In this document: positions 1 to 39,062 of the stretch, piece after piece
How positions within the stretch are numbered: position 1 is the stretch's first letter
Layout of the letters: every line of letters begins with the position of its first letter
From: an uncultured Clostridia bacterium
GTDB lineage: Bacteria; Bacillota; Clostridia; TANB77; CAG-508
Length of the DNA: 64,000 nucleotides
Direction: 5' to 3'
Assembly (NCBI GenBank): GCA_947581825.1
Contig: CANPVP010000007.1
Coordinates: forward strand, 7,543-71,542
The notes under the pieces: model-generated
What the model saw: only the letters and a program-made list of their open reading frames with translations
Told to the model about the DNA's origin: nothing
Databases searched by the model: none
Made by a program: the position numbers and the translations under genes

Positions 1-3000
1 TGTAAATACTAATGGAAAATATAAAGATGGAGAGCAAACATTTACATTAGTACTAACTGAGCAAGAGAGTGGAAGATATATACCACTAGAACATGATATA
101 GAAATTGAGTATACTTGTAAATATGATACAACAAATGATAAATGGGAAACTAAGTATACAAAAGTAAAATATGGAGACAAACAGGCAGAGGTTAAAGTAC
201 AAAATAGCGAAGCACAAAATCTTACAGGTTTACTAGATACAGATGAACTAGGCTTGTATCAGAAAGGTACTGATATTTACGTAGTAAATAAACCAGACTT
301 TAATCCAGCTCAAATACTATTACAAAAGAAAGATGAAGAAGGAAATCTTATAAATGGAATTACTTTCAAAGGAAAAGTTGAGCAAGTAAATCCTATAGAA
401 GGTGAAAAAGCAGATGCTGTAAATTTCGAAGTAACAACTGGTGAATCAAAAGATGCTAATGGAAATATTCTACAAGGTGTTGCTTTAATAGATAATATAA
501 ACTTATCTAGAGAAATAAAAATTACTATAGAAAGTGAAGCATGGAAAGATAAAAATAATAAACAGCCTCTAGAGTTCCCAACAGAACCTATAGTAATTAC
601 AGGAATAGAAGTATATGATGATTGGGAAGGAAATATTGGATATAAAAAGATAAGAACAAAAGATGATAGTGGAAAGATTACTGTACAAATAGGTGAACAA
701 GAAGCACAAACAATTGATGTAAATAATAAAGACGAAGCTTCTGAAAACCTTGTATCTTTCACTGGAAATGACAGTAATGTTGTAACATTCTATATTACAA
801 ATAAAAATAAAACATATGATCTAGATGGAAAAGATGCTGATACAGGAATACCATTCCCATATAAAGTTGAAAGAGACATTTTAGGAAATGAAAAGAACGT
901 AACAGAAGGAATTACATTTACTGGAAGAATAGAAGATAGCAATGGAGAAATACTACAAGACCCAGTAACTGTACAATTTAAACAAAATGTAAATTCATCA
1001 GCAGATGGGGCAAATGGAGAAGTAGGCATTGAAGCTAAAGATATTAATGGAAAAATATCTGTAAAAGAAGGAGAACAAGAAGAAGAATATAAACTTATTA
1101 TAAAAGAAAATAATGTATCAAGTAACAACACTGATGCTGTAACAGTTATATACACTTGTAAATATAATAGCGATGAAGACGAGTTTACATCAAAAATAAA
1201 AGCCTATGAGTACAATGGAAAAAGATATGATTTTAACAAGAATATGGAAGAAGTTAAAAAAGACTTAATTCCAGGTGAAGTTAAAGATGATGGTGCAAGA
1301 ATAAATATAAATGATTTATATGTTCCTATAAGAAAATTTGATGAATATGGAAATCTAATAAATGGAGTTGTATTCAAAGGAAAAATAAAAGTAAACATAG
1401 AAAAAGATGAAAATGGACATCCAAAGGATTTTAACTTAAAAGAAGAATATGATTTTATAACAGTAACTGGTGGACAATACTGGAATGATGAAACAAAGCA
1501 GATGGAAACAGCTCCAGATGGTGTTGCAGTAATACCAATTCCAAGTGAAGTAAAAGGAGATTTCACTATAACTATTGACGAAGAATATTGGGGAACTTAC
1601 AAAGAGAATAAATGGACTACAGAAAAAGGAAAATTACCAGATGGACAATTCCCACTAGAATTTGTAAAAGGTGTAGTAGAAATAGGTGGATATGGCATTA
1701 AAGAAGAGACAAAAAATGATATAACAGAAAGAACTGTAACATATAACGGAACAACTGTTAAATATACATTAAATGGTAGTGAAGAAAATAGTGAACCTAT
1801 AGAAGTAGAAAATTATAAAGCTGTAACTACAGATGAAAAAGGTTATATTAGATTTATAAATAATGAACTTAGATATGATTTGAAAAAATCAACTGAAACA
1901 GGAGAAGGAAACAATTTATTTGATGATAAATTTTTAGAGACAAGTTATGGATATAGAACTAAAATAAAAGAAGGAATTTATTTTACAGGCTATATAGTTG
2001 ATGAAACTAAATATGATGAAAAGGGAAATATTATTAAACCTAGTGTAACATTACAAGAAGGTAGAAGTACAAAAGATCCAGAAGACAAAAATAAAGTTAC
2101 TGTTGCTTTAGATAAAGATACAGGAGCAATTGTAGCAACAGGAATTAAAGGAAGTATAGCAGGAATAGATGAAAATAAAACCTTTAAATTTGTATTAGAA
2201 GAATTAAGTTCAAATGGTGAAAATGGCACTCTTAATGTAGTACCAATAGATCCAATTGTAGTAGAATATACTTGTAAATATGATAGAGAAAATGAAAAAT
2301 TTGAAACAGCAATAACAGCATATGAATATAAAGGAAAAAAATATAGAATGTCAGATATTCAAGAACAAACAACTGTAGAAAAAGACATAATTCCTGGATT
2401 AGTATGTGTTAAAGAGGAAGAAAGTAGTATTACAGATAAAATTGGATTAATAAACCATGAAAAGACAATTGATATTCCTTTAGTTAAAAAGGATGAAGCA
2501 GGAAGATTAGTAAATGGAATTAAATTTACAGGAAAAATAATAGCATTAGACGAAGAATATAAAGACGAAAATGGAAAACCAGTATTTGAGACTACAGAGG
2601 AAACAAACAATAATGAACAACCTACAACAAAGAGAAAATCAATGAATTTTGAAGTAGTAACTGGTGAAGTTCCAACAAAAGATTCAATAAAATTAGATGG
2701 TAGCAAAAATGAAGCAAATAATAGCGAAGATAAAAACTTTACAGATGAAGATGGAAAACCAATGTATACAGCTCGTGATGGTGTTGCTTTAATACCTCAA
2801 ATTCCTTATACTGGAAAAGTTAAAATTATTATTGAAAAAGAAGAATGGGCAGATGAGGATTATAAGCCAGCTCCAGGAGATCCAGACCTTGAATTTATAG
2901 ATGGACAAATAGAAGTAACGTTTAGTATTGTCAAAGATAAAAATGGTGAAAAACACATAAATTATAATGGTGGAATGCAAATTGAAGTTAAGGATAGAAA

Positions 3001-9000: not shown

Positions 9001-12000
9001 GATAGTAGGAGATAATATTAAACTTTCAGTTAAAGAAGCAAAAACAATTCCAGGAATTGTTCCAGTAGATTTTGATATAGTATATTCTTGTACATATAAT
9101 GATGGTAAGTTTGAAACAACGATATCAAAGAAAACAATTAAAGACCAAAATACAGGAGAAACTCTAAAAGAAATAAATGGAACAAATGAAAATGGAGATG
9201 TTTTAGAGGAAGACATTACAAAAGATGGTGTAGAATTACAGATTAGAAAAGTGGATGAACATAATGTACCAGTAGCAGGAATTAAATTCTCAGGAACAAT
9301 AACATCAGAAGAAAATAATGGTGGAAAAATAACATTTTCTACTAAGGCAACTGATGAAAATGGTATTACAACTATAATTATTTCAAAAGCTGATATAGAG
9401 CAATACATAAAATTAGGTAGGTTTAATGTAGTTATAGACAAAGAAGAATGGGATAATGGAGCAGAAGCAAAATGGAATGCAATAGCAGGAAATGCTGATA
9501 GAAAACTTCAATTTATAACCTCACCTGTAACAATTTCAGGTTATAAGTTATTTGAAACTTGGGATGGTAACTATGCTCATAGAAGTGTAGACTTTAGTGG
9601 AATAAGCTGTGAAGATACAGAGCATGTTGAACTAGAAAAAGATACAGTAACAATTAAATTTAAAAACAACGATTTAACATACAACATACCATTTATTAAA
9701 ACAGATAAATTATTAACTAATGATAACCAAGATAGTGCTGAAAAATTAAAAGAAGTATCATTTGATATTTCTATAAAAGAAAGTGATGAAGATAACAATC
9801 CACAAAGATTTTATACAACATCTGATGACAATGGTAGATTTGATATAGAAGGAGTTTCAAAATTTGGAGATAATGTAACTTTAACATTAAAAGAGATTAC
9901 TTCTGAAAATGAAACAGCCCAAATGCTAGATGAACCAATAATAATTACTTATAAAACTGTAATAAGTAATGGAAAAGTTTCATTAGAAAATGTAAAAATT
10001 AATGGTAAGGAAATAGATGCACCTTCTGATGATCAAGTTAATAAAACAGATATAGAAGAAGAAAAAGAAAACAATATACAAAAAATCGATGTACAACAAG
10101 ATGAAGGAATAGTGTTAGCAGGATTTAATGTTGTAAACTTTAAAAAATATAGAATTACAATAGATAAAGACTTAAAAGTTGAGGATACAACAATAGATGC
10201 AACTGAATCTGTAGGATTTAAAGGTATTATTACAACAGATCCAAGTAAAGTAAATGGCAATAATACAATTATGAGTTATAAAGATTTTGAGAGTAAGTTA
10301 GAAACATGGAAGAATAGCTCTGATAAAGATGTAATTTACTTTGATGGTCATACAACTGGTGGAAAATTAGAAATTCCAAAAGACATAGATTTCTATGATA
10401 AGCAAGTTTATGTGTACTTTATTGAGTACGATGTTCCAGCTACAATGACTGAAATTAATGAGGTTATGTGGGCATCATTCAATAAGAGAATAACAAATGC
10501 TGAGGCAAATAGTGCATCTTCAGCAGGTAATGTTGAAATTACAAATACAGATACATTAAATATAAGTATTAAAGTTGTAAACCAAGCAAAATCTTATAAT
10601 GTTAACTTTAAGAAAATAGATGCACAAGATCCAAATAGGCAAATTGACTATAGCAATGCTAAATTTACAGTACAATTAAAAGCTTTGAAAGAAGACAACT
10701 CAGCTACTGAAGTAGTTGATACAATGGATATTGAATTTAATGGATTAGGAAAAATAAAAGAACAAACAAAGCCTGGAAAATACTTAGTTGATGCAAAATT
10801 TGAAGATAATCAAATTAAAATTGATGTAAATAAATTTGGTAATTTACAATTAGTAGTAACAGAGGATAGAGCACCAGCAAATTATCAAAAACTAGATACA
10901 GATATTGTAATTAATTATAAAGCAAATGCAGAAGCATCAGAAAAAGACAAAATAATAACTGATGTTCAACTTGAAAAGAATACAAATCCAAGCATTAAAG
11001 ATAAAATAAATGCAAAACCTAATGCTAAAGGAAATGATGTAAGCTTAGACTTCACATTACCAAACTATCCAAATGAATATAGTTTAACGATTAAGAAAAA
11101 ATCTAGAACAAATCCTGACAGTATATTAAATAATATTCAATTCCAATTATTGTTCTACAAAAATAGTGATAATAAAGAGAGATTTGAATATCTAGAAAAA
11201 ACATTGTATGTTGTTAATGGAGGAAAAGTAACAGTAGATGGCTTAAAAGAATATGGTGCAAATTATATGGTACTTCATGAAACAGAAACTGATGGAAAAG
11301 TAGTTAAGCTTCCTGGATATCATGTGTTTAATGTAGAAGCAGTAGTTGGACAAAAACCAAAATTAACATACTTAGGAATGTTTAAATCAGATAAAGAAAA
11401 AGAAGCTGATTATACTATAGAAGAAATAGATAGTAAGTTTAAAGAGCAAGATATTTCTAAACTAGATAAAGCATATAGTAGTTATTTCAAAACAGATGAA
11501 AATTCTGTTGAAGTAGGAAGCTTAGTTGTTGGAAATGATGAACCAAAACTTTACGATATAGATATATTAAAAATAGCTGAAGAAAAAGATGCAAAAACTG
11601 GAAAATCAAATCCACTAGAAGGAGCAATATTTAACTTATACTTAACTAAATCAGATGAAGATTATGCAACAGGAGAGAACCTATTAGATGTTAAATATAG
11701 AAGACAAACAACACCAGTAGATGGACTTATTTCTATCAAACAATTAGATAAGTATAGCGATAAATATGGTGATTTAAAATTAACCTTAGTTGAAGAAAAA
11801 CCACCAAAAGACTATAAAACAGTATTTAGTAAAATAGAAGTAACATATAATACAACAGATGGAAAAACTATTGAAATAAAATCAATAAAAGTATTTGATG
11901 CAAATAATAAAGAAATGTCAGATTACAAAAAATATGTAAACATAACTAATGGTAGTACAGACAAGAAAATAGAAGAATCTAAAATAGAAATAAGTGTTCT

Positions 12001-15856: not shown

Positions 15857-15886
15857 TAGTTACTGTAAATAATAATAAACCTAAAC

Positions 15887-15913
15887 AAAAAAACGAGCTT
15901 TGCTCGTTTTTTT
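15887..15913 (+). terminator. Rho-independent terminator of giant gene 1.
   Basis: aaaaaaacgagc-ttt-gctcgttttttt: perfect GC-containing stem with a 3-nt loop followed by a T7 run, 31 nt after the stop at 15854-15856. Confidence 0.8.
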
Positions 15914-16233
15914 GTTACCTCCAACTATTTGTTTTTATATTATATTATCAAAATTTTCATCAGCTTTTTTGGACAAAAAAAACGCAAAACTGGCTTTTCC
16001 CTAAGTATAGTGACATTTCAAATAAGCCAATGTAATGAAAAAATAATATAAATGAAACATTATGACATCAAACCCGCATCCGTAAAGACTTAGAGAGAAT
16101 ATTACTATATAATATATTGAAAAAAAAATTACAAAATGCAAAAATATCTATAAGTATGTTGCTAATTAACATAAAAATAATCGACAGCGATAAACACTAA
16201 ATTTAATACTAAAAGAGAGTAGTATTAAAATGA

Positions 16234-16240
16234 AAGGAGC
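16234..16240 (+). promoter_or_regulatory. Ribosome-binding site of giant gene 2.
   Basis: aaaggag located 6 nt upstream of ATG 16246. Confidence 0.7.
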
Positions 16241-16245
16241 AAAAA

Positions 16246-25200: not shown

Positions 25201-28200
25201 ACAGGTGAAAAACAAAAAGACATAAATGGTCAAAATTGTAAAGATCCAAAAACAGGATTAGAATATCCATCATATGATGGTGTAGCTACAATCTACGGAA
25301 TTACTAAAGATTATGTTGGTAAAGTTAGAATAACTATTACTGAGGAAAAATGGAAAGATGGTAAAGAATTATCACCAAAAGAAAATGAAGTTAATTTCGT
25401 TGATGACATTATTGAAATTATTGTAGATGTAAAAGAACAAACAGAACAAGATGGAACAAAAAAATTAGTTGTTGACTATGGAGAAAACTTAAATTGGAAT
25501 ACATATAGCAAAAACTCAACAACTGAAAATAGCAGTTTATCAGAAGAATTAAATGAAAAAATAGAGGAAGTAATAAAAGCAAAAGGACAATCTACAACAG
25601 AAAATTATAAAGTAAAAGAAAATGATGAATTTGCATCAGCACTTTTAGATATTGACACATACAATAATGACAAGAAACAAGATGATGTTATCGGAATTAA
25701 AGTTGTAAACGAAGTTAAAACTTACGATATTGAAATACCAAAAGTAGTTGAAGTAGAAAAAGATGGTAAGAAGACATATAGAGCGTTAACTCCAGAAGAA
25801 GCTGCAGAACTTAGATTTACAGCTAAGATTTATGATTCAACTTATAATGGAGAAAATACAGATGCAAAACCAATACAAGAACTTGATGGAAATCATGTAA
25901 GAGTAGTTGTTCTTGATGAAAAAGGAAATGAAATAAAAGAGGGAACAACAAATCAAGAAAATAACAATAATAAAACAAAATCAGTTATTAGAGTTTCTGG
26001 AATTAGAGGTTCTATAATAGGAGAAAGTTTAACACTTGTTTTACATGAAGAGGCATCTGGAGGAATTCAAAAAATAGAAAAAGACATCCAAGTTACATAC
26101 AAATATACTAATAATGAAGCTGATAAGGATGGAAAACCAGAATTATTAAAATTCAAAGATCCAAATGTGGAAAATGGAAACGGTATAATAGATGTTAAAC
26201 TAATAGAAAAAGAAGATAAAAATGAAGAATTTAAAGAAACTAATGTGTCTACAAATCCATATTTAGTAGTAACTGATGAGGGTGTAGCAATTGTTCAAAA
26301 AGAAAAAGAAACAACTCTTGCAATTAAAAAAGTTAAAAAAGTAAAAGATACAAATGGAAATGAGGTAGAACAACCTGTTTCTGGTATCAAATTTACTATA
26401 AGAGTTTGTGGAAGTTGCGAGAAAGAGTGTGCTAAAGACCCATTAAAATGTACATGCGGAGATGATTGCACAAAATGCAAAACATTAACTGCAACTTCAG
26501 ATGAGCATGGATTAGCAGAATTTACAGGAATAACAGAAACTGGCGAAGTTAAAGTAGTTATTCTAAAAGAAGAATGGGATACTACACAATTAACAGAAGC
26601 AGAAAAAGAAGGAAATGACAAGATTGAGTTTATTAATGAACCAGTTGTAATTTCTGGAATTAAAATAAAAAAAGGCAAAGAAGAAGAAAATGCCAATATA
26701 GTAGATTATACCAATGCACAAGTAGTAGAAAGCAGTGGAGAAAGCAAAGCTAGTAGCCATGTAAGTATAAATAAAAACTTTGGTATTCAAATTGTATTTA
26801 AAAATGATACTGCAACATATGATTTAGAGGCATTTGATAGCAAAGTTACAAACTACAATGGAACAATAGAAAAAGTATTGAAAGATGTTACTTTTGAAGC
26901 TGTTATAGCAAAACATAAAGACGGTGCACCTGATATAACCATACCAGATGGAAATACTACATTTAACTTAAATGACGTATATGAAAGAAGTGATAAGGCA
27001 GAAGATAAATTACAATATATCGGTCCATTTGGAATAAGCAGTGATGGAAAAATAAGAGTAGAAGGCATTAAAGGAACAATAGCAAAACAAGTAAAAGCTG
27101 AAGAACAACAAACACAAGCAAATAGTACTGAAACAGAAGGTACATATGATGTTATATTAAGAGAAGTATCATCAAATATGACACCAAATTCAGATGAATC
27201 AACAGATGGAGAAAAAACAGAAGAGATTAAGAGACCAATTATAAAAATTGTATATACTTCTACATGCATAACTGATAAAAATGGAAATAGCTCATTTAAA
27301 ACAGAAATAAAAGAGTATGTATGGAAAGATAGCGAAGGAAAATCACATAAATACATTCCAAATTCAAAAGTACAAGTAGTTGATGAAGGACCAGCAACAA
27401 CATTAGAAACAAATAATAATGTTGCTAATGGAAAAGAAATTGAATTACAGTATTCTGAATCATTTGGAGAAGTATTATATGTTCATAAAGATGGAAAAGT
27501 AAGTTTAATTAATACTGAAAAAAATCCAGTTGCAATTAACTTAAAGAAAGTAGATAGTAATGGAAATCCAGTTAGAGGAATTAAATTTACAGGAAAAGTA
27601 ATTGCATTATTAAATGTAAACGATAAAACTTTAATTCCTAAAGAAGAGCTTACTGATACAGAAAATGGACAATTAATGCAAAAGAGAATTGAATTTAACT
27701 TTGGTGGAAACGATACAAATTCTGGTAGAACAAATTATAGTGGTGTAGCTTTACTTGAAATACCTGAAGATGAAATATTCAATTATGAAGGTGAACTTAA
27801 AGTTGTAATCACTAACGAAGAATGGGTAGATAGCACCAATAAACCTGTATTAGGATTCCCTAATGAGCCATTTGCAATTACTGGATTAACTCTAAAAACT
27901 GATCCACAAACACATAAGAGCAGAATAGAGTATGGAGATATAAAAGTTGAAAAATGTGATGTAAATGGAAATACACAAGAAGGAGAATCTGCATATAAAA
28001 ATAAAGTAAAGAAATATAGTGTTGATGATGGAGAACAACAAGGAACAGAAATATTAGGAGTTTCTGTAGAAAACCCAATCTTAGACTATGATTTAGATTT
28101 AGGTTATAAATTATTAAAATCTGGAGATGAACTTATACCTTTAAAAGAAGGTGTTGGATTTAAAGCTCAAGTATACAAAGATGGAAAAAAAGAAGCAACA

Positions 28201-31200
28201 CAAAAACCTAATCAAGAACCTGATGTAGTGCTTAATGCTGCAGACGGAAAGATTACAGCCAAAGCAATAAAAGGTGATATTATAGGTAACGATATAGAAT
28301 TAATATTAACAGAAACAGAAAACGGACATATTGTAAAAGATATGGAAATTACGATAGTATACTCATACAATCCAGATGGAAACCCAAATGATAAACCTAC
28401 TATAACAGAATACAAATGGAAAGAAAAACAAGAAGATGGAACAGAAGTTGATAAATCATATAAAGTACCACAAGATGGTACAACAGGCGGAGATGGAGAA
28501 GAAGCTAAAAATACACAAATTGGTAACATGATTTATACAAATTACAAAGAATTAGTAGGTATTATAAATGAAGTTATTCCAAATCCTTTAGATATTCAAA
28601 TTGAGAAGAGGGATAGCAATGGAGCTACTGTTGCTGGTATCAAATTCGAAGGAAGAATAGTTGCAGTAGATAAAAATGGACAAGAAAGAAAAGATGAAAA
28701 TGGTAAGGCTATAGAGAAAACATTTACAACAACTATAGATAAAGAAGATGGTACACAGGAAACTCTAAATTGGATTACAACAGATACAACAGGTATAGCA
28801 AAATTACACTTAACCAAAGAGGAAGTTAATAAATTTGCTGGAAATATTAAAATTGAAATAAGCAAAGAAGATTGGAGCACAGACGATAGAGATCCATTAA
28901 AAGTAGATCCAGAACAACGTACACCATTGGACTATATTGATGGAACAATTGAAATTACTGGTAAGAAGATTAATGTTGAAGAGAATAGCCAAAGCAGTAT
29001 AATAAATGATGGAGAAGTAACAGTAACTATTAAGAATAATGGAAAAGACGTTACAGAGCAATATAAAGATAGAGTTGATGCAAAGGCTCCAGGAGAAATA
29101 TCTGTAAGCATGAAGAATATTATTAAAAAATATGATTTAGAATTGTTTAATAAGAAGATTATAAATGTAAATGAAGAAGAAGTACAAATTAAAGGAGACA
29201 TTACATTTACAGGAGAAATTAAACAAAACGACAAAACATATCCTATTACTATAGCTTTTGGACCAGAAACAAATGGTGCAATTATTGCAAAAGATATCAG
29301 AGGAGAGATAGTAGGAGAGAATATTACACTTTCAGTTAAAGAAGAAAAAACAATTTCTGGAATTATTCCAGTAGATATTGATATAGTATATTCTTGCTCA
29401 TATAATGATGGTAAGTTTATAACAGCAATATCAAAGAAAACAATTAAAGACCAAAATACAGGAGAAATTCTAAAAGAAATAAATGGAACAGATGAAAATG
29501 GAAATGTATTAGAGGAAGACGTTGTTAGAACAGGTGTTGAAATTCCAATTAAAAAGGTTGACCAACAAGGAAAACCAGTAGAAGGAATTAAATTCACAGG
29601 ATATGTAATATCAAACAACAAAAATAGCAAAGATGAAGGTGTAGCTTTTAATGTAACAACTAATGAATATGGTATTGCAAATATAGCACTTAAAGCTGAT
29701 TATTCAAATAAAGATAATGTTATAGACGAAATAAAAGATAAAGGTCTTTTAGGAAACTTCAAAGTTGTTATAGAAAAAGAAGAGTGGGCAGAAGGTGCAG
29801 AAGCAACATGGAGAGCAATTCCTGGAAATGAACATAGAAAACTTAAATTTGTAGCAAATAATACAGAGATTGCAGGTTTTGAAATGCAAGAAGCTATTTC
29901 TGAAAATATAGTTATAAGAACTGTATTATTCGATAAAGCAACATGTAACAATACTCATGTTCAGGTAGATAAAAATAATATTACAATTAATGTTGATAAC
30001 CCAGACTTAACATATGATATACCATTTATTAAAACAGATGAATTAATGAATGAAGAAAATAAAGATAAAGTAAACAGATTAGCTAATATAGAATTCTATG
30101 TTACAATCGAAAGTGGTAGTGATAAACAAGAATTTAAACCAAAGACAGATGAGAATGGTATGTTTACATTAGAGAATATTCACGTATTTAGTAGTGATAC
30201 AACTCCTGTAACACTAACAATGAAAGAATTACCACCAGCTGATTTAGGAATACAAATATTAAAAGAACCAATAGTAATTACTTACTATACAGTAGTAAAT
30301 AATGAAACTGGAGAAGTTTCTTTTAAAGATGTTAAAATAGTTCAAAATGGTACTGAACAAAATGATAATAATACTGATAAAATAGTAGATTATATACAAG
30401 TAACTTTAGGAGATAAAGAATATAAATTAATCAACATTGTAAACCATAAAGCATATTCAATTACTTTAGACAAGAAAATTCGTGTTAATGGCAATGAAGA
30501 TAATAAAGTAAAAGATGTAATAGAAGAAATAGGATTTACAGGTTGCGTTACTACAAATCCAGAAAGATTTGGAGTAACACAAAGTAAAGATGAATCTGGT
30601 AATATTCAATATAAGATTGATAAAATTGCATTTGAAGCTAATTTAAACCCAAGTGCAACTAAAGATCTAACAGATACAATATATTTCAGCGGAACGACAG
30701 CAAACGGAAAATTAGAAATACCAGATATAACATTCTATGATAGACAAGTTTATGTAATATTTAAAGAGTTCTTTGTTAATGGCAAAGAACCAAGCTCAAT
30801 GGAATGTACTGATGAAGTTATGGTGGCATCATTTAATAGAAGAATATCAAATGTAGAGTCAACAAGTACATCATCAGATAATGTAACATTTACAAGTATA
30901 GAACCATTAAATATAAGCATTCAAGTTGTAAATGAAGCTATAAACTATAAAGTAAAATTGAAAAAAGTAGATACTGATGATAAAAGTAGATTAATAGATT
31001 ATAAGGGTTCTCAATTTACAATAACTTTAAAAGAACTAGAAGATGATAAAGAGGTTACAGAAACAACAGATCAAGTAACATTAGTATTTGACGAGGAAGA
31101 AGAGATTGATAAAACTCTATCTACAGCTCTTCCAAGTAAATATATAGTTGGGGCACAATTAGTAACAGAAACAGACGAAAATGGAAATGTAAAATTAGAT

Positions 31201-34200
31201 ACAGATGGTACTCCACTAAAATATATTGAATTAGAGCTTAATAAATTTGGTAATAATCTACAACTAGTAGCAACAGAGGATAAAGCACCAGCTGGATATG
31301 AAGCATATAATGGAGATATAGTAATTACATATTCGACACCAGAGCCAGGAGAAAACAAAGAAAATAGTAATATAACAATTAAAGAAATTGTTGGGGAAAG
31401 TGTTACAGCAACTACAAGCAATGACAATAATGTATTAAGTTTAAACTTTGAACTGCCAAATAGTCCTAAACCATATCCATTAGAATTCTTTAAAGTATCT
31501 AAAGAAACAAATAAAAAATTAAATAATATTCAATTCCAAATACTATTTATGAGAAAAATTGATTCTGAAAATTGGGAAAGAATCTTAGAAGACAAGGGAA
31601 GATTATTTAATACAGTAGCTGGAAAGATAACTATACCAGATATTCACAATTATGGAACATATTATATGGTATTAAAAGAAACTGAAACACCTAAAAATAC
31701 AGTAAGATTAGAAGGATATCATATAGTTGAAGTAAATGCGGAGATAGATAAAACTCCAACTCTAATATATAAAGGAACTTTTGCAGAATATGGATATACA
31801 GATAAAGAAACTCTTGTTGATAATGATGAAACAATAAAACAAGTATTATTAGATGCTAAGAATGCTATTGAAAACAATTTTGTAGAAATACAAAAAAATA
31901 ATTTGACTGAAAAATACAAAGCATATTTCAAAAATAAGACTGAGGCTAATGATAACTTCTACTTTACAGTTGAAAATGATTCATCAATAGATTATAAGAT
32001 AAACGTTTTGAAGAAGGACATAAGTAATCATGATAAAGATTTGGATGGAGCAATGTTTGACTTATACTTAGTAAAAGCTAACATGCCATATACAACAGAA
32101 ACTAACTTAATACGAGAACAAGACAGAAAAGGAGAAACTGTTGATGGTAAAATTACTCTTGATTTAGGATATAGTGAAGAACATTATAGTAAAAATACAT
32201 ATACTGAAGAACAGATAGAGGCTATAAGAAATGGAACAAATACTGAAGCTTTAGGCGATATGCTTAAATTGGTATTAGTAGAAACTAATCCACCAAAAGA
32301 CTATAAATCAGAATTTAGCAGAATAGAAGTAACATTCTATACTCATGATGGTAAAGATATTAAAATCATAGATATAAAAGTATTTGATGAAGTAGGAAAT
32401 GAAATAGAGAATAAGTATGCAGAGTATGTTGATAGAAATGAACCAAAAGAAGCAGAAATTACTTTAGCAGCATACAATACTAAGAAAATAGGGGTTCCAT
32501 TACAAATTAAGAAAGTTTATTACAAAGAAGTAGTAGTAGAAGAAAATGGACAAAAGGTAATAAAGAAGATAGAACAACCTCTTGAAGGTGCAGCTTTCTC
32601 TGGTGTGGTTTATGAGAAAGGAAAAGTAAAAGCGGGTACTGAATTTAGCAACGTTACAACTAATAAAGATGGTATTGCTAACCTTGGAGAGTTCTATGTT
32701 GAAGGTGATATTGTAATAGATATTACCGAAGTTAAAGTGCCTGCAGGATTTGAAGAAATAGATGAAACTAACATAGAATGTACAGTAGATGGAAAGAAAA
32801 TAACAGATTATTCTATTTCAACAAATGCTGTAGAAGAGATAGATTGGGTAAATGAAACAAACCAAATAAAAATAATAGAAGGTGTTGATATTAAGTATGA
32901 TATATCTTTACAAGGTTTTGTTTGGGAAGATAGACCAGCAGACACTGGAACAAAACATGAAGATGACTATACAGTAAAAGGTGTAGCAACTGAGGGCTTG
33001 TATGATGACGGTGTAGATTTAAAAATTAAAACAACTGATAAGGAGAATAATCCAACAACAGAGATATCTGATGTTGAAGATGGTGTTATAGTTAATTTGT
33101 ATAATTATGATACTGGAGAACTTTTACAACAAACGACTACATACGATGATGGCTTATATACATTTAAGATTTCAGATCCATTTGCAAAATACTATGTTAC
33201 ATTTGAAATGCGTGGAAAATATAACTATGATAATTATGAGAATGTTAAATTCTTAGTAAAATCAATTGAAACTGAACAACAAAATGGAGTAGAAGAGAAT
33301 AAAATTAATCAATATAATAACATTAATGATGCAATAAGTGCAGCAGAAGGAAATTTGGAAAGCTCTAATTGGATGTACAATTCAAAAGCAATTTTGGACG
33401 AGACAACTGATAAGAATCAAAAATTAGATCAAAATACAGCAGTAACTACTAATAAGAATACAGCTAGTGGTAATAGAAATACAGTTCGTCCAGAAAATGT
33501 ACAAGCATATCCAATATATGATTATTTCACTATACAGAATGATAATAAACTTGGAATGTTTGTTGTCTACAAACAAATTTCAGGAAATAATACAAATCCT
33601 GATTATACAATAGCTAATGTACAAGAAGATAAAAATCCAAATGTGGAAGGATATACTCCAATAACATTTGAAATATTAGATCCAATACACAAATATATAA
33701 ACTTTGGAATTGTAGAAAAAACTGAATTCTGGCTAACATTAGAAAAATACGTTGAAGAAATGAAAATGACATTAGGAGATGACAAGAACGAAACACCATA
33801 TACGTATGAATTTGGTAAATATGAAGGCGACAAGATGTATACTTTAAATATAAATAAAGCAGATTTAGGAAAATTAAAGAATTTAGATATTATCTATAGA
33901 ATAGATGTTTTAAATGAGAGTATAACTGATGGAACATTAAAATCAATAGCTGATTATTATAATTCAGATATTATGGAATATGCAGGATATGCTATAAATC
34001 TAAAGGCTGATTCAGAAGGAAAAATAGACTTCGATAAAGTTAATTGGAATACAGATAAAATGCCTGAAGATCCAACCCATAAAGAAAATCTAATTCCAGA
34101 ACAATGGTCTACTGATGACGTTATAATTCAGAGAGCACAAGCAACTACAGGAAAGCAAATAATTGAATTGAAGCCAACAGATCAATATATAAGCAGTCAT

Positions 34201-36285
34201 GAAAAAATATCAATTTATGTAAAATATAATTATAAACCAGACAAATTAGTGGACGAACATAAGAATTTATTCGGTAAGATAAATGAAGTAAATTCATCAT
34301 ATGTTACTCTAAGTGTAGCAGAAATATATGAAAGTTCAGGCGAAGGTGGAAGAAAAGATATTAATTCTGAAAATAATAGCTTAGAGAATAAATTTGTAAA
34401 TACGTATAAACGTGTATTTAATGATTTCTATGATTATGAGAGCGATAACCAATACTATTGGGATTTAAGTCATAAACAAGAAGGCGAATTTGATATATAT
34501 GATGAAGATGCAGCACCAGCAATGAAATTATTAATTGAAAACCCATCAACTAGAAAAATAACTGGACAAGTATTTGATGACGAAAATGAAGATGGAATAA
34601 TGAATGAAGGCGAAGTTGGTATTGATGGTGTAAAAGTAAGTATTTATGATGAATATGGAACTAAGATTAAAGACACAGTAACATCAACTAATAAAGCAGA
34701 CGGCTCAAATATTGCAAATAAAGGAACATATGAATTTAATGGAATTCCAGAAGGAAAATATAGTCTAGAATTCACATATGGTGATGAAAATACAGTATTA
34801 CCTAAGTTATATACTGAAAGTACAGATGAGAATGGAAATATCATGAAAGATACTAATGGAAATATAGTTATAGCTGATGATAATACAAATAGTAATTGGA
34901 TATATAATGGACAAACATTACCAAGAAACAATAATAAGTCATATAATGCATTAGAATATCAAAGTACCAATGCATATAAGATAGAGCAAGATAATGATTT
35001 CTGGTATAGAGATGAAAAGAGAGCTAATACAGTTTACTCTGATGCTACAGATGATTCTACAAAGAGAGCTGCAGCAGATAATACATTAAATACTAATGGA
35101 AAAGGTATTATGAACAATGCAAAAGCCGAATTATTGTACTCATACAGAGGAAGTGAATATAATAAGGATTATATTGAAACTTTAATAAATAATGCAGTAT
35201 CTGCAAAAACAAATAAGTTCAAAATTAATAGTATGAATACAGAATCAACAGAATTCTCATACACAGGTGATACAGAAGATGGTTCTTCATATGAAGACGA
35301 GCATGGAAATCTTGTAGGAACTGGAAGCAATGCAAAAATAAACTTCGGTGTTAGACCTAGAGAGATGACAAATCTTAAAGTTGTAAAGAAAGTAGATAAT
35401 GTAAAAATCTATACAAGTAGTGGAAATTCTAATGTAGATGCTTCTTATAACAATGGAACAGTAGGACAAGCAGGAAGAGTTCAATGGTCACCAGGTAATG
35501 AACAAAACGGTAATAGAGGATACATTTGGATTCAAAGATCAGAAGAAGAGATTATAGGAGCTAAATTAGAAATTACTTATAATATAACTGTTAGAGATGA
35601 GTCAGAGGATAAAATAGCTGGAGAAGAGGTAACAATTGTAGATTATGTTCAAGATGGAATGAACTTTGATAAAAATAGCTATGAGGATAATAAATCTTGG
35701 GAGATTGCAACAGCAAGCACTAAGGACAATATAAGTAAAATAGGAGATGTTAATATAAACAAAAATATTGATTTGACAAATGTAAGTACAGTAGTAACGA
35801 AAAAAGTAACATTAGATGAAAATGGAGAATCAGAAGATATTAAGATTACATTAACAAAAACTCTAAATTCTTATAGTAATACTGATATTGATGCATATAC
35901 AAATTATGTAGAAGTAATACAAACAGTAACTCCAGGATTAGCTAGAAAGGATAAAAACTCAATACCAGGAAACTTCGATCCACAGAGGGAAACAACTATT
36001 GAAGGAAACATTGGAGCAATTGGTAACTTACAGAATGTAATTACTAAAGCTTTAATAAGCCGTGAAATAGTATTAGTACCATATGATGGACAGGTACCAA
36101 CCGAATATGAAAATGAAAGCATAAGACTAGAAAGAGATACAGCAAAAGCACAAGAAACAATAAGTATTACAGCAGAAACTGGTGAAAACAGAGCTACAAC
36201 ATATTATATCTTAGCATTTGCAGTAATTGCAGTATTTGCAACAGGGGTAGGTGTAATTGTTACAAAAGTAATTAAGAAAAAATAA
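16246..36285 (+). CDS. Giant cell-surface fibrillar adhesin-like protein (6,679 aa). Signal peptide, unique head domain, long E/K-rich coiled coil, then more than 30 Cna-B/SpaA-type and SdrD-B-like domains, a conserved C-terminal module and a C-terminal TM anchor.
   Basis: 20,040-nt ORF with RBS. N-terminus MERIKQKLLAIILIIIAGIVGYQAYVMA (h-region plus AxA-like site). Classic Cna-B motifs such as FFKADEDGKPLAGATFTLANKDP...TDTDGYMEF and IEVEEIEAPNGY. SdrD-B-like segment ITGQVFDDENEDGIMNEGEVGIDGVKVSIYD...GTYEFNGIPEGKYSLEF. C-terminus ITAETGENRATTYYILAFAVIAVFATGVGVIVTKVIKKK. Confidence 0.9.
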   Translation: MERIKQKLLAIILIIIAGIVGYQAYVMAHGYPRAIGQGVPFWSNGSMVYCREHNNGWGYGQGAADRASYYVCVGEVSTVAKQADGLAYYVSRASARSIQDLIWSKSGSSAGQSIINMGTDFRSWFAPWGSDNFANLFSINEGNKETGNEEKNSASMEALRKDVTVKVVDELPDWFFTNVNAGSVGESDKKNNSTALSDSEINVIIKEYEKNHTKEETEAFKKELKDAQNNEKIIETTVNKVINTIKAKSIDINRFTEEQSNELKAEIQKEEGIKNSIIPSKKKEIEQQIKNKERENVNDINKVATEEVTEDILQRAVTKIELEQNEKEEEKIEKELKKIEELLEKENLQQDLRIIKEDLKTIRDNWNTTKEKYKANQISVEDYKKIEDEYYNKVLKDIQTILVNNYENTEELNQYKGNQDASEEESYNLVDLIVEQSGKISDISYDEYKYLYDMHKLFQFFGSYKNQANTFLDGNVNSESWNLLLRHLNSYSSDGTSNLLRKVDKNISMADKNSTTYVSNVTQLDQSKIVSVESKDNSYGTAVDIYAHYQLNLTSEQQAKLNSMNNENEKREYQKTIGQTLWAYQSDRKKDKDGKEITHQITIDGQQKTYYEYEKIYFEDQADSVVSFFSEELLCIGTDDQDGVIGTNASETSALLKYIECFKDDAKGTTEFCSFIKNKYPNLAKQLSEAKGSNLSERIINLYNKYTSKITNICQEDNSEHYYVYKNKVEENYWDLNWGDTKKAARLYQWLMTRDAEGVTNIDKIAGQFSIDDTDARVSIDRVSGKYLIGPYTINYSTLILNGEKLLGIDDFSVLLSMGENGKEVNKVLTQGDGKDQYNIVCMKGTTRNIKNKDGKTIEVPKSGNSFFIELDKDVKGNGKRLTENDIFKFNISYEYLKQINATVHLLRDSASDASSGTPDIWNSSHPQRLMTFTWRSERDYIDKSIATSTREYDFKLRKTDKETGKGVNGGKYIAAAKYKNSKDGSIAYFDLERQIKSYNSFEEFKAAAEAQDVSTYISESQPEGNGYILWNDIPESIAEVERTTEDGTVILSSDKIWTLECIEVEEIEAPNGYSIPTIDEIKVSNGCTINNKGSYYTVSIPTSSSEGEITWPEPSVPKDYYIPIKKVDNNGKPIDDLKLEYWFADLTVASGEWDSQNWKYGSGNRQQAITGHRIYAEKGKKPGKQLNGMAYLTNNMYSDAILLVIEEKPAEGYDYQYFQKIAMVYSAKQGAKGPEIKFLKAEDIKNTIAKQNLANWENEAEREVIQNNNWENGVLFVKDKTGSIIESSAKKVEGKEGQGIYVNAEVTLEELNNEIVEIINDEIPPYSLELFKFEDSGEYNPNLAGTRFKVWITMGNREEAAYEKEITVKEEKDENGKKIYVAKAEGIRIYGDNLALHIQEKYAKPGFESKLTVKTIALIYKAQVVFENGKVKPKLTILENTPNESLFVSNNSNLPDEFNGHPITVVNEDTISGICVGIENERAPHYLRFFKADEDGKPLAGATFTLANKDPREEGFNSSNEIGTDTSDTDGYMEFAIPSEVKGENKEYTLYLYENSSGDGHIYSDTSKNNPVIIKYQYVAGDDSITGLSIIHNGKDLTDNWTKVQNKEFTKENKKLHCQQTVQDQERTKEDGTKETVKVNVNSIKNNGYIFDFGNLKEIFLLTNNPVPYSLDWDKVEAETDIPLGNAKFEVSIVQSDGDLSNTIKEIVEDLAKDNTYILPSGVRFAKYKNDDTELPIKNLGKLINDGKQEGQDIVSNNEEGENKGRVSVDNIVTYGECYAFIKEIQTVGAHQLLNDIIVVHYKINKGETKPTILDDIYVYTPASNDKEAKVTKYLRSNGVYKDDNGKVYTNVSMDGNTLQIINQKAPYSLEINKTNALSGRPIKDVAFRAIIRHKNENGEPKVVDISRTTESGKITINDIYEYSVNDNDLITLELYETVPEYYNYFDKNKASELVYIADYIKKGANEPLQQKTGYMIINPITGEGNKIESFDKIGDTSKILFTISEVGQSNGQNDSNSSLHTVKIPNMPTYNLQAEKKEEFNGQLNNVDINGISFTGKIRKGGVNENGDVIQNGQSANAKELDVRNFTVYLKEYTSNGLKSVMVSAEGIDTHSAFFDESGNLNNNAQTFTLVLEEASNGKYAIEHPIEIEYTCQPDTDNGIWKTEYKKIKFNDKTVDIPAGQETVLIDTEELGIQVAKDGHLILINKYKFEPIQILLQKKDENGKLIDGISFEGLLEQDESKLMAGKEPRKIAFGVKPVYGKVTEIDPITTGEKIAPDGKQYNGVAVLDNIDFGGAVKLTITKEYWKDPTDKPALNFQEEPIEISGMYIAEYKKGNVTYRKLTVPNNKITVKVGNGEAKEVDITKTEALNEFVSFSSDGNVSTFYITNQYKRYNLDGNDEDKDDTPPPFSDKVIRDVQGNDTEYKNEDKKIQFTGIITDSNGEVLQNDVKVTFEKKETQNAEGKESKVSIKALDINGSISGKDENGKEKEFKLVLKENTDDEPITVIYTCTYDSSSDEFTANIIGYEYKGIRYNKDDKENNPEQKDDIVPGRVDNDGSLINYNKLYIPITKHDEKGNLVNGVVFKGTVEYPKDENGHPTKFGENGQSSWDFETVTGGKYYDFAEDEYKTAPDGVAVIVVPYEMDGDFIVTITDEYWGTKEDDTWTTTRGTMPDEQPYDLEFMEVDAAIKGYSVKKEKVDEWKTVSKLYYNGNKVEYTVENMEDEAVNVTAYNYIDVDKDGHIKFVNDEIRYNLDENTKPLFDEKIKVDSLGNAFQVKDNISFTGYIKDTDGKTLQEGQSINEEIRDKDKFTVGLDSEGRIIATDILGEISGDENTEFYFVLQELGEGEGQPLEITVIYTSVYNKQTRTFDITIKGYEYNGERYDITTETGDNTFNEIVKGYVWHKQENGEEKRDLINVLETSIPLIKYEEAKKSEGGQPILRNGIQFTGKVEAVEERVGSNGIKEYTTKKNAEGNEISQYFKIVTGEKQKDINGQNCKDPKTGLEYPSYDGVATIYGITKDYVGKVRITITEEKWKDGKELSPKENEVNFVDDIIEIIVDVKEQTEQDGTKKLVVDYGENLNWNTYSKNSTTENSSLSEELNEKIEEVIKAKGQSTTENYKVKENDEFASALLDIDTYNNDKKQDDVIGIKVVNEVKTYDIEIPKVVEVEKDGKKTYRALTPEEAAELRFTAKIYDSTYNGENTDAKPIQELDGNHVRVVVLDEKGNEIKEGTTNQENNNNKTKSVIRVSGIRGSIIGESLTLVLHEEASGGIQKIEKDIQVTYKYTNNEADKDGKPELLKFKDPNVENGNGIIDVKLIEKEDKNEEFKETNVSTNPYLVVTDEGVAIVQKEKETTLAIKKVKKVKDTNGNEVEQPVSGIKFTIRVCGSCEKECAKDPLKCTCGDDCTKCKTLTATSDEHGLAEFTGITETGEVKVVILKEEWDTTQLTEAEKEGNDKIEFINEPVVISGIKIKKGKEEENANIVDYTNAQVVESSGESKASSHVSINKNFGIQIVFKNDTATYDLEAFDSKVTNYNGTIEKVLKDVTFEAVIAKHKDGAPDITIPDGNTTFNLNDVYERSDKAEDKLQYIGPFGISSDGKIRVEGIKGTIAKQVKAEEQQTQANSTETEGTYDVILREVSSNMTPNSDESTDGEKTEEIKRPIIKIVYTSTCITDKNGNSSFKTEIKEYVWKDSEGKSHKYIPNSKVQVVDEGPATTLETNNNVANGKEIELQYSESFGEVLYVHKDGKVSLINTEKNPVAINLKKVDSNGNPVRGIKFTGKVIALLNVNDKTLIPKEELTDTENGQLMQKRIEFNFGGNDTNSGRTNYSGVALLEIPEDEIFNYEGELKVVITNEEWVDSTNKPVLGFPNEPFAITGLTLKTDPQTHKSRIEYGDIKVEKCDVNGNTQEGESAYKNKVKKYSVDDGEQQGTEILGVSVENPILDYDLDLGYKLLKSGDELIPLKEGVGFKAQVYKDGKKEATQKPNQEPDVVLNAADGKITAKAIKGDIIGNDIELILTETENGHIVKDMEITIVYSYNPDGNPNDKPTITEYKWKEKQEDGTEVDKSYKVPQDGTTGGDGEEAKNTQIGNMIYTNYKELVGIINEVIPNPLDIQIEKRDSNGATVAGIKFEGRIVAVDKNGQERKDENGKAIEKTFTTTIDKEDGTQETLNWITTDTTGIAKLHLTKEEVNKFAGNIKIEISKEDWSTDDRDPLKVDPEQRTPLDYIDGTIEITGKKINVEENSQSSIINDGEVTVTIKNNGKDVTEQYKDRVDAKAPGEISVSMKNIIKKYDLELFNKKIINVNEEEVQIKGDITFTGEIKQNDKTYPITIAFGPETNGAIIAKDIRGEIVGENITLSVKEEKTISGIIPVDIDIVYSCSYNDGKFITAISKKTIKDQNTGEILKEINGTDENGNVLEEDVVRTGVEIPIKKVDQQGKPVEGIKFTGYVISNNKNSKDEGVAFNVTTNEYGIANIALKADYSNKDNVIDEIKDKGLLGNFKVVIEKEEWAEGAEATWRAIPGNEHRKLKFVANNTEIAGFEMQEAISENIVIRTVLFDKATCNNTHVQVDKNNITINVDNPDLTYDIPFIKTDELMNEENKDKVNRLANIEFYVTIESGSDKQEFKPKTDENGMFTLENIHVFSSDTTPVTLTMKELPPADLGIQILKEPIVITYYTVVNNETGEVSFKDVKIVQNGTEQNDNNTDKIVDYIQVTLGDKEYKLINIVNHKAYSITLDKKIRVNGNEDNKVKDVIEEIGFTGCVTTNPERFGVTQSKDESGNIQYKIDKIAFEANLNPSATKDLTDTIYFSGTTANGKLEIPDITFYDRQVYVIFKEFFVNGKEPSSMECTDEVMVASFNRRISNVESTSTSSDNVTFTSIEPLNISIQVVNEAINYKVKLKKVDTDDKSRLIDYKGSQFTITLKELEDDKEVTETTDQVTLVFDEEEEIDKTLSTALPSKYIVGAQLVTETDENGNVKLDTDGTPLKYIELELNKFGNNLQLVATEDKAPAGYEAYNGDIVITYSTPEPGENKENSNITIKEIVGESVTATTSNDNNVLSLNFELPNSPKPYPLEFFKVSKETNKKLNNIQFQILFMRKIDSENWERILEDKGRLFNTVAGKITIPDIHNYGTYYMVLKETETPKNTVRLEGYHIVEVNAEIDKTPTLIYKGTFAEYGYTDKETLVDNDETIKQVLLDAKNAIENNFVEIQKNNLTEKYKAYFKNKTEANDNFYFTVENDSSIDYKINVLKKDISNHDKDLDGAMFDLYLVKANMPYTTETNLIREQDRKGETVDGKITLDLGYSEEHYSKNTYTEEQIEAIRNGTNTEALGDMLKLVLVETNPPKDYKSEFSRIEVTFYTHDGKDIKIIDIKVFDEVGNEIENKYAEYVDRNEPKEAEITLAAYNTKKIGVPLQIKKVYYKEVVVEENGQKVIKKIEQPLEGAAFSGVVYEKGKVKAGTEFSNVTTNKDGIANLGEFYVEGDIVIDITEVKVPAGFEEIDETNIECTVDGKKITDYSISTNAVEEIDWVNETNQIKIIEGVDIKYDISLQGFVWEDRPADTGTKHEDDYTVKGVATEGLYDDGVDLKIKTTDKENNPTTEISDVEDGVIVNLYNYDTGELLQQTTTYDDGLYTFKISDPFAKYYVTFEMRGKYNYDNYENVKFLVKSIETEQQNGVEENKINQYNNINDAISAAEGNLESSNWMYNSKAILDETTDKNQKLDQNTAVTTNKNTASGNRNTVRPENVQAYPIYDYFTIQNDNKLGMFVVYKQISGNNTNPDYTIANVQEDKNPNVEGYTPITFEILDPIHKYINFGIVEKTEFWLTLEKYVEEMKMTLGDDKNETPYTYEFGKYEGDKMYTLNINKADLGKLKNLDIIYRIDVLNESITDGTLKSIADYYNSDIMEYAGYAINLKADSEGKIDFDKVNWNTDKMPEDPTHKENLIPEQWSTDDVIIQRAQATTGKQIIELKPTDQYISSHEKISIYVKYNYKPDKLVDEHKNLFGKINEVNSSYVTLSVAEIYESSGEGGRKDINSENNSLENKFVNTYKRVFNDFYDYESDNQYYWDLSHKQEGEFDIYDEDAAPAMKLLIENPSTRKITGQVFDDENEDGIMNEGEVGIDGVKVSIYDEYGTKIKDTVTSTNKADGSNIANKGTYEFNGIPEGKYSLEFTYGDENTVLPKLYTESTDENGNIMKDTNGNIVIADDNTNSNWIYNGQTLPRNNNKSYNALEYQSTNAYKIEQDNDFWYRDEKRANTVYSDATDDSTKRAAADNTLNTNGKGIMNNAKAELLYSYRGSEYNKDYIETLINNAVSAKTNKFKINSMNTESTEFSYTGDTEDGSSYEDEHGNLVGTGSNAKINFGVRPREMTNLKVVKKVDNVKIYTSSGNSNVDASYNNGTVGQAGRVQWSPGNEQNGNRGYIWIQRSEEEIIGAKLEITYNITVRDESEDKIAGEEVTIVDYVQDGMNFDKNSYEDNKSWEIATASTKDNISKIGDVNINKNIDLTNVSTVVTKKVTLDENGESEDIKITLTKTLNSYSNTDIDAYTNYVEVIQTVTPGLARKDKNSIPGNFDPQRETTIEGNIGAIGNLQNVITKALISREIVLVPYDGQVPTEYENESIRLERDTAKAQETISITAETGENRATTYYILAFAVIAVFATGVGVIVTKVIKKK
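25010..27360 (+). repeat. Third copy, in gene 2, of the roughly 2.4-kb multi-domain module that is duplicated in gene 1.
   Basis: SIPLIKYEEAK...VTGEKQKD...IRVCGSCEKECAKDPLKCTCGDDCTKC...YDVILREVS...KEYVWKDSEGKSH is colinear with gene 1 units a and b. Confidence 0.7.
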
Positions 36286-37230: not shown

Positions 37231-37306
<76 letters not shown>

Positions 37307-37834: not shown

Positions 37835-38572
37835 ATGGAAGTTTCAAGAAGAGCTATACATATAGTACTTATTATATGCATAATAGTTGCTGTTGCAATT
37901 TTTGTTGGAGTAACAATGCAAAGATATGAAATTGAAGGCGAAAAGAATATGCCATTTGAGCTTTCAAAAATAATGATATTTAGTACTGCTGAAGGCTTTG
38001 CAAATGAAAAAAGTGATTATAAATGGGACTTTAATATTTTTCAAAATAATGATATTTATATAAGCATAGCAAAAAATGATGATTATAAAAAAACAGAAAT
38101 TATAGATAAAATAGTAATTGATAATTTTTCAATAGATGAAAAACCCAAAAAGGGTGAATTAGTAGTTTATAAGCCAAATATAGAAACAGCAACACCTTTT
38201 AAATGTGATGAAAAATATGAAGTAAAAGATGTGTTAGAATTTACGGGTGAAACAGAAGCAAATGTAGAAAAATTGCAAATTGCAAATCAAGGTGGAATGA
38301 TAATTTTTAGAATTTCTAATAAAAATCTTCATAGATACCAATCAAATGATGATAAAACAATAGTACATGATGGAACTTTGTTGGCAAAGGCTAATATAAA
38401 AAATGAAGATATAAAATGCAAAGTGTCTTTTGATATAACCATAGAGTTAAAATCAGAAAAAAAATATAAGGGAACAATCACTTTAGAATTGCCAGAAGGA
38501 AATATATTAAAAAATGGTCAAGAAAGCTTAGAAATAACAAATTTTGATGATGTAGTATTTAAGAGAATATAA
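37835..38572 (+). CDS. Hypothetical membrane-anchored protein (N-terminal TM helix).
   Basis: ORF with AGGAG RBS. N-terminal hydrophobic segment IHIVLIICIIVAVAIFVGV. No recognisable catalytic motif. Confidence 0.55.
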   Translation: MEVSRRAIHIVLIICIIVAVAIFVGVTMQRYEIEGEKNMPFELSKIMIFSTAEGFANEKSDYKWDFNIFQNNDIYISIAKNDDYKKTEIIDKIVIDNFSIDEKPKKGELVVYKPNIETATPFKCDEKYEVKDVLEFTGETEANVEKLQIANQGGMIIFRISNKNLHRYQSNDDKTIVHDGTLLAKANIKNEDIKCKVSFDITIELKSEKKYKGTITLELPEGNILKNGQESLEITNFDDVVFKRI

Positions 38573-38931: not shown

Positions 38932-39062
38932 AGTAGTTAGAATCTTACCTTTGTACGGAGAGTAATTTCAATAGAGCCCCATGAACCTCGTCAGGTCTGG
39001 AAGGAAGCAGCGATAAATGGGATACTTTATGTGAGTAATTACTTTCCGTAGAGAGGTAAGAT
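38932..39062 (+). ncRNA. ffs: Signal recognition particle RNA (4.5S/scRNA-like, apparently short form). The 3' end is uncertain.
   Basis: Domain IV consensus GTCAGGTCTGGAAGGAAGCAGC (E. coli GUCAGGUCCGGAAGGAAGCAGC) at 38990-39011. It sits at the apex of a roughly 117-nt hairpin, cttacctttgtacggagagtaatt...aattactttccgtagagaggtaag. Position immediately upstream of dnaX, as in Bacillus. Confidence 0.7.

Follow-up and report, generated by a model that had tools for sequence, protein, structure and literature searches.

Tandem giant genes of an uncultured Clostridia bacterium encode probable fibrillar surface proteins with SpaA/CnaB-like stalks and a variant sorting-type tail

Introduction

Fibrillar adhesins of the TIE type, such as BaTIE of Bacillus anthracis and CpTIE/Cpe0147 of Clostridium perfringens, combine a signal peptide and an N-terminal head with a stalk of Ig-like domains that cross-link themselves and with a sorting signal, and in thioester domains (TEDs) the motifs [YFL]C-hydrophobic-polar, TQxx-hydrophobic-W and hydrophobic-Q-polar-hydrophobic-hydrophobic follow one another in this order (PMC4450167, PMC6194298). 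Domains of the CnaB type display an intramolecular isopeptide signature, which consists of a Lys-Glu-Asn set with an aromatic neighbour (PMC12617251). Two further points of comparison are the B-repeats of the SdrD/Cna MSCRAMMs (PF17210) and the LAXTG/LAETG signals associated with class E sortases (NF041528, TIGR01167). Here, we analyze a 64,000-nucleotide stretch of DNA from an uncultured Clostridia bacterium (the window; positions 7,543 to 71,542 of the forward strand of contig CANPVP010000007.1, GenBank assembly GCA_947581825.1), which carries two giant genes, hereafter g1 and g2. Their products are, in our view, probably Sec-secreted, C-terminally anchored fibrillar adhesins with an isopeptide-locked SpaA/CnaB stalk and a sortase-type signal.

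Proteins of this kind are already known as Gram-positive fibrillar adhesins of the TIE/MSCRAMM type. As in TIE adhesins, a signal peptide, an N-terminal head, an Ig-like stalk and a sorting-type signal follow one another in g2, and the head contains TED-style motifs in the same order. The family of g1 and g2 differs in that its proteins are 10 times longer and in that their tail reads T[A/P]ETG, not LPXTG. What is new in this family is the divergence of the modules, their arrangement into two-module super-repeats with large inserts, the orphan head and the T[A/P]ETG motif.

Results

Two giant genes in tandem

Two open reading frames (ORFs) lying head to tail occupy 56% of the window, and the open frames confirm what the first-pass annotation of this DNA had reported. 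g1 (2..15856) is the 3' 15.9 kb of a giant gene of at least 5,284 amino acids (aa); it is open at the window start, where frame 2 is free of stops from base 2. g2 (16246..36285) is complete from ATG to stop and encodes 6,679 aa with no internal stop. Both genes are on the + strand, as are all features located below by window position unless stated otherwise; the window has a GC content of 29% and a strong purine skew on this strand. In the 390-nt spacer between the two genes we find a terminator-like hairpin with a GC stem and with A and T runs on its flanks (15884..15916, strand not assigned), as well as a ribosome-binding site, GAAAGGAG, read from the sequence 6 nt 5' of the g2 ATG (16232..16239).

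The two genes are tandem colinear paralogues. Indeed, aa 218-5284 of g1 align colinearly with aa 1628-6678 of g2 at 36% identity, in agreement with the paralogy proposed earlier, and over their last 400 aa the two proteins are 63% identical. The g2 protein is hydrophobic in exactly two stretches; one covers aa 4-29, and the other, aa 6650-6677, is followed by KVIKKK. The description of g2 as a complete protein with an N-terminal signal peptide and a C-terminal transmembrane (TM) helix with a basic tail therefore holds.

A stalk of SpaA/CnaB-like modules

The stalk of g2 (19087..32814, aa 948-5523) comprises 23 SpaA/CnaB-like modules, 16 of which form eight degenerate two-module super-repeats (22321-30318, aa 2026-4691). 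In g1, an array (281..9976, aa 94-3325) of at least nine units, which are 320-410 aa long and pair an A-type with a B-type SpaA-like module, precedes four further canonical SpaA-like modules with E..AP..Y-type motifs (10574..12331, aa 3525-4110).

The first-pass annotation had read both proteins as chains of SpaA/CnaB domains, a reading that Pfam alone supports at a single point. Over ~12,000 residues, Pfam returned one SpaA domain, in g2 (aa ~1490-1537, 32.2 bits versus a gathering score of 23.1), and one SdrD_B domain in each protein; no SpaA module of g1 scored above the gathering threshold, and an NCBIfam scan of g1 and g2 gave no match. The motif strings that had been quoted are all present, but each occurs once, with E..AP..Y found twice in g1 and four times in g2 and GKPL.GA found once. 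The chains themselves are supported by profiles that were iterated within the seven-member family to which both proteins belong. These profiles unite the 23 modules of g2 and at least 16 modules of g1 as one SpaA/CnaB-like family, and bring the two halves of the super-repeat together with the Pfam SpaA hit and further modules that flank it; the iteration involved 7 sequences only and lenient thresholds.

Comparisons with PDB and Pfam entries, and a structure model, point in the same direction. In a PDB search, the best match to a profile of the 38 window modules was the pilin 3pf2 (E = 9.4e-5), and eight of its 11 weaker PDB matches (E 0.007-0.84) are pilins, such as SpaC and SpaA. When modules were searched singly against Pfam, SpaA was the top family, with 10 of the 38 modules at E < 1 and a best value of 3.9e-6. 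The AlphaFold2 (AF2) model of a super-repeat unit is all-beta, with a predicted local distance difference test (pLDDT) score of 81.8, and pilins stand, weakly, at the top of its structural matches.

Mean identity among the 38 window modules is ~15%, and a Lys on the first strand (K14) is the only invariant column. Across 117 modules of the 7 family proteins, conservation is seen for this Lys (110/113), a Phe (112/116), a Gly (98/114), a Glu (98/107) and an Asn at the module junction (86/86), and the invariant Lys sits on the hydrophobic face of its strand (Y.L.I.K). As far as sequence can tell, the Lys, the Glu and the junction Asn, which are the best-conserved residues of the module, are the isopeptide triad signature. 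Because this set is conserved together with an aromatic residue, we infer that each module would hold one Lys-Asn isopeptide bond. In the super-repeat unit at g2 aa 2570-2935, the candidate sets, numbered within the unit, are K3-E86-N178 and K196-E275-N~347.

The modules share with SpaA/CnaB domains (PF17802; PMC12617251) the K.D..G.p[LV].G..F start, the first-strand Lys, the Glu and the last-strand Asn, and their conserved aromatic could be the 'cap'. They differ in that one of ~39 modules passes the Pfam threshold, and in the A-type modules of the super-repeats, which have E.(E)W in place of E..AP.GY and inserts of 60-100 aa. Some of these inserts hold seven Cys residues (VC..C...C......C.C...C..C), and could be a metal-binding or disulfide knot; this seven-Cys insert is present in one A-type module of g2 (aa 3388-3411, window ~26407-26478) and in two of g1 (aa 1264-1290, ~3791-3871; aa 2034-2059, ~6101-6178).

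Basal block

SdrD_B-like domains had been described as interleaved with the stalk modules, which is not what we observe. Such domains number two per protein and are confined to the C-terminal 1,100 aa, and each is followed by a conserved domain of ~250 aa (X1 and X2, respectively). The block of g1 (12407..14491) consists of SdrD_B-like domain 1 (18.7 bits), X1 and SdrD_B domain 2 (aa ~4716-4790, 45.2 bits), with X2 at 14897..15646 (aa 4966-5215). That of g2 (32878..34935) likewise consists of SdrD_B-like domain 1 (24.9 bits), X1 and SdrD_B domain 2 (aa ~6103-6217, 48.3-50.7 bits), with X2 at 35308..36045 (aa 6355-6600). With a Pfam cut-off of 29.7 bits for SdrD_B (PF17210), the second domain passes in both proteins and the first is sub-threshold in both.

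In common with the B-repeats of SdrD/Cna MSCRAMMs, these domains carry a Ca-site-like G.VF(W)DD..DG motif. They differ in being basal, near the anchor, and paired with X1 and X2, and not the repeating unit of the stalk. PDB profile searches with the C-terminal 1,150 aa gave no match. A visual impression that X1 and X2 could be DUF11/CLIPPER domains (PF01345) was dropped because the isolated segments had no Pfam match at E <= 10.

The C-terminal tail

No LP.T[GAS] motif is present in g1 or g2, so that the proposed 'non-LPXTG anchor' is correct as far as LPXTG is concerned. The C-terminus does have a motif, however, and a variant sortase signal is the better reading of it. In g1 the tail (15737..15856) runs SITAETGENR, hydrophobic helix, KKVIKK, stop; in g2 (36163..36285) it runs SITAETGENR, helix YYILAFAVIAVFATGVGVIV, TKVIKKK, stop. 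SIT[A/P]ETGENR is invariant in all seven family proteins and is followed by a hydrophobic stretch of ~20 residues and a Lys/Arg tail, whereas the flanks, including the preceding linker, vary. The pentapeptide is TAETG, or TPETG in the relative P0006.

When isolated tails were scanned, sortase-signal models were the only matches. With the LPXTG_anchor model TIGR01167 (cut-off 15.9), P0006 scored 17.2 bits and passed, g1 scored 14.1 bits and g2 gave no match; with the LAETG model NF041528 (cut-off 30 bits), the tails scored 12.0-14.9 bits. Compared with LAXTG/LAETG signals, the tail has the same AETG core, helix and basic end, and differs in having Thr instead of Leu at position 1, in g1 and g2 scores that stay under the cut-offs, and in that no cognate sortase turned up among the window ORFs tested.

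A second T-x-x-T-G tail was seen next to P0007, a further family member. The adjoining gene (L086 619-5940; ENA ERZ27249148 NODE_271) encodes a DUF11-repeat surface protein of 1,773 aa, found in one strain only and unrelated to the giant family, which ends in LTLKTGQ, a TM helix and KKY; its N-terminal part contains 'LYCVQAE', a TED-style Cys motif. This second tail suggests a lineage-wide T-x-x-T-G variant, which may reflect a lineage-specific sortase specificity.

Since the motif is invariant, sortase-signal models are its sole matches and a second T-x-x-T-G tail exists, T[A/P]ETG with its TM helix and basic tail is most likely a variant sortase-type signal. The main rival to this reading is that, in the same fibre, the C-terminal helix serves as a permanent membrane anchor with no sortase involved, the protein being tail-anchored in the cytoplasmic membrane and threading the wall, and SITAETGENR being a structural or stop-transfer element. 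We consider this unlikely, though deserving of real weight. It would agree with the missing LPXTG motif and with tails that score under the TIGR01167 cut-off and far under that of the LAETG model. It would also agree with the lack of a sortase, both in the remaining window ORFs that were tested (~110 aa and longer), as noted at first pass, and in the recovered flanks of three relatives (up to 10 kb for P0007; 0.7-4.5 kb, on short contigs, for P0004 and P0006). It is harder to reconcile with a run of ten invariant residues that abuts the helix in 7 proteins whose last 330 aa otherwise show 42-68% identity to g2, with the TPETG tail of P0006 passing the LPXTG model, and with a T-x-x-T-G motif, helix and basic tail in an unrelated second surface protein. 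The layout is, moreover, closely parallel to the C-terminus of protein A, in which LPETGEENP is followed by a helix and RRREL.

Signal peptide and head

The g2 signal peptide (16246..16329, aa 1-28) consists of MERIKQK, a hydrophobic core and the family-conserved GYQAYVMA (GYQA.VMA). It is followed by a head of ~900 aa, presumably the ligand-binding tip, for which neither Pfam, in any of the family members, nor PDB sequence-profile searches gave a match. The head begins with an N-domain (16327..16785, aa 28-180) that holds the invariant residues C50-R51-E52, C72 and Q99...W103. A K/E-rich helical, coiled-coil-like insert of ~270 aa (16837..17655, aa ~198-470) comes next and is found in g2 and P0002, and not in the shorter relatives. 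The remainder (17656..19080, aa 471-945) ends in the invariant HPQRLM (aa 926-931).

The head invariants appear in the order [YFL]C50-R-E, C72, [IVF]Q99-x-x-hydrophobic-W103 and, just 5' of the first stalk module, [PS]Q928-R-[LF]-[MI]. This order is similar to that of the TED motifs, but the motifs are short, Arg follows the Cys and the Thr is absent. The candidate Cys and Gln are 520-880 aa apart, compared with 170-200 aa in two class II TEDs, a spacing 3-5 times as wide. The AF2 model of the head places Cys50 on a strand and Q99-W103 within a helix, which matches the arrangement of TEDs; with a pLDDT of 48.7, the model is too poor to carry much weight. The head as a thioester domain found no support, since Pfam, PDB profile searches and a Foldseek fold search with this poor model returned no TED similarity.

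A bolder interpretation takes the head to be a new, greatly expanded thioester adhesion domain, with a Cys50-Gln928 bond spanning large inserted subdomains, and the tail to be a new T-x-x-T-G signal for a sortase whose specificity would be novel, making the whole a covalent 'harpoon' on an isopeptide-locked stalk of 0.1-0.2 µm. We find this improbable. The motif order and the predicted positions of Cys50 and Q99-W103 speak for it, whereas the spacing, the residue differences and the negative searches speak against it, and a C50-C72 disulfide would be an equally simple reading of the two invariant Cys. The thioester reading of the head may be taken as a lead, not a finding.

Pilus, scaffold or artefact

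A different interpretation of the stalk would make g1 and g2 subunits of a pilus polymerized by sortase, or scaffold proteins of, for example, an S-layer or a cellulosome, and not single-chain adhesins. Pilin domains are indeed the top structural and sequence matches. The YPKN-type pilin motif is, however, absent from g2, and g1 has one YPRN without pilin context; no class C sortase is adjacent among the window ORFs tested; SLH, cohesin and dockerin domains are absent from all Pfam scans; and ~6,700 aa correspond to 10-20 times the size of a pilin. We hold this interpretation to be very unlikely.

That the giant ORFs arose as errors of assembly, or are pseudogenes in decay, with collapsed, expanded or chimeric repeats, a concern for internally repetitive genes from a metagenome, is close to refuted: at 29% GC, a run of 6,679 codons would lack a stop with a probability of ~1e-246; the database protein P0011 equals the g2 protein exactly and P0001, of the same length, is 99.985% identical to it, the two being found on 8 contigs (ENA and NCBI) from several samples; two ENA assemblies read directly have the same neighbours around the g2 protein; five more full-length relatives show the same architecture; functional residues are kept across modules; and the internal DNA repeats are diverged (longest near-identical stretch 300 nt at 93%), which makes collapse or expansion by short-read assembly unlikely. 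The same-length product in independent assemblies and the diverged repeats thus bear out the first-pass annotation, which had treated both genes as real.

Two observations concern the way in which the repeats evolve. A 300-nt patch in g1 (8789-9088) is 93% identical to one in g2 (29095-29394), against a paralogue protein identity of ~36% overall, which suggests that the two genes have recently undergone gene conversion with each other. Within g1, a two-unit block of ~2.3 kb has recently been duplicated in tandem (~2465-4940 and ~4920-7250; aa 822-1650 and 1640-2413, ~60% aa identity), with 3604-3835 and 5914-6145 being 89% identical at the nucleotide level; repeat number would therefore evolve via segmental duplication.

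Family distribution

In order to find relatives, 1.84 billion cluster representatives (~15 billion proteins) were searched exhaustively with HMMER, using a profile of the super-repeat and a limit of E <= 1e-3. Ten proteins matched, of which six are family members, representing six 90%-identity clusters: g2, P0002 (6,806 aa) and four shorter relatives of 3,645-5,291 aa. Of the other four, one is an Ig-like protein of Serratia that is unrelated, and three are weak hits to short proteins (98-1,183 aa). P0002 is the closest relative of g1, with 55% identity over 4,030 aa and the residue numbers shifted by ~1,400-1,500 aa, which implies that full-length g1 would be ~6,800 aa long and carry the same head.

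All six clusters come from metagenome assemblies, one of the samples being a Mongolian gazelle gut metagenome (PMC8965509), and the host is probably an animal-gut Clostridia bacterium. No relative was detected in the contigs of GTDB species representatives scanned with the C-terminal alignment, nor in JGI metagenomes scanned with the patterns WIQ[RA][SA][EQ]E[EQ] and IT[AP]ETGEN. A word-indexed homology search with the C-terminal 700 aa of g2 and with the N-domain alignment gave no match either, a weak negative, since it also missed family members in the same collection. The family is very rare.

P0007, the family member mentioned above, is 3,874 aa long. It was found in the sample that also yielded the window contig, with similar coverage, and the organism may therefore carry three family members. 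At its locus (L086-L088), a response-regulator-GGDEF (diguanylate cyclase) gene lies upstream and a PMT_2-family glycosyltransferase gene downstream, which hints at control of the fibre by cyclic di-GMP and at its glycosylation. A tandem family member downstream of P0004 was considered and rejected, as the large neighbouring ORF proved unrelated.

Genomic context

The remainder of the window is Firmicute chromosomal housekeeping, with ttcA, tadA, the signal recognition particle (SRP) RNA, dnaX-ybaB-recR, rpoB, rpoC, an LCP transferase gene, mecA, radC, mreBCD, PBP2 and minC. The bacterial small SRP RNA (38954-39053) lies 5' of dnaX, and a tRNA-Arg(CCT) gene (37231-37306) lies 5' of tadA. Between tadA and the SRP RNA, an ORF of 245 aa (37835-38572) without matches in Pfam or NCBIfam recurs unchanged in at least 12 contigs. 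dnaX-ybaB-recR is directly 5' of rpoB-rpoC, the rplKAJL genes not being in between. The nearest RpoB sequences, at 78-80% identity, belong to uncultured Clostridia metagenome-assembled genomes; synteny with these closest RpoB relatives was rejected, the giant gene being absent upstream of their rpoB.

Discussion

We propose that g2, from the N- to the C-terminus, would consist of a cleavable signal peptide, a ~900-aa head, a 23-module stalk, a basal block of two SdrD_B-like and two further domains, and a tripartite sorting signal. Each stalk module would lock itself by an autocatalytic Lys-Asn isopeptide bond, with Glu as catalyst, and the locked modules would form a rigid rod that resists protease and force and carries the head outside the wall. 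Cleavage between T and G in TAETG (candidate substrate ...ETISITAETGENR...) would fall to a sortase-type transpeptidase, which would join the fibre to peptidoglycan. We estimate a fibre length of 0.1-0.2 µm, from the helical insert and ~27 beta-sandwich domains that would span 4-5 nm apiece, so that the 'hundreds of nm' given earlier appear to be overstated. The same applies to a size 'comparable to the largest known bacterial proteins', since predicted ones reach 85,804 aa (bioRxiv 10.1101/2023.11.21.568195).

Several points weigh against this model. Pfam and NCBIfam are silent on more than 95% of g1 and g2, and some of the module calls could be profile drift. The reactive Lys of SpyCatcher lies three residues upstream of the position aligning with the invariant module Lys. 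Both window tails stay below the cut-off of the LPXTG model, and the window and the flanks covered hold no sortase, as described above. Adhesion, finally, is a putative role of the fibre.

Giant Gram-positive fibrillar adhesins are well established, and the biological surprise is therefore moderate. The two genes nevertheless mark an annotation gap, in that surface proteins totalling ~12,000 residues, conserved and clearly functional, go nearly unseen by Pfam and NCBIfam, and the super-repeat modules would be useful new seeds for isopeptide-domain families. Divergent self-locking modules may also serve as raw material for protein engineering of the SpyCatcher type. If the tail does reflect a lineage-specific sortase specificity, surfaceome predictions based on known motifs would miss such proteins. 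As for the organisms themselves, the orphan domain of the head is probably what determines the attachment of these gut Clostridia, for example to plant fibre, mucus or other cells.

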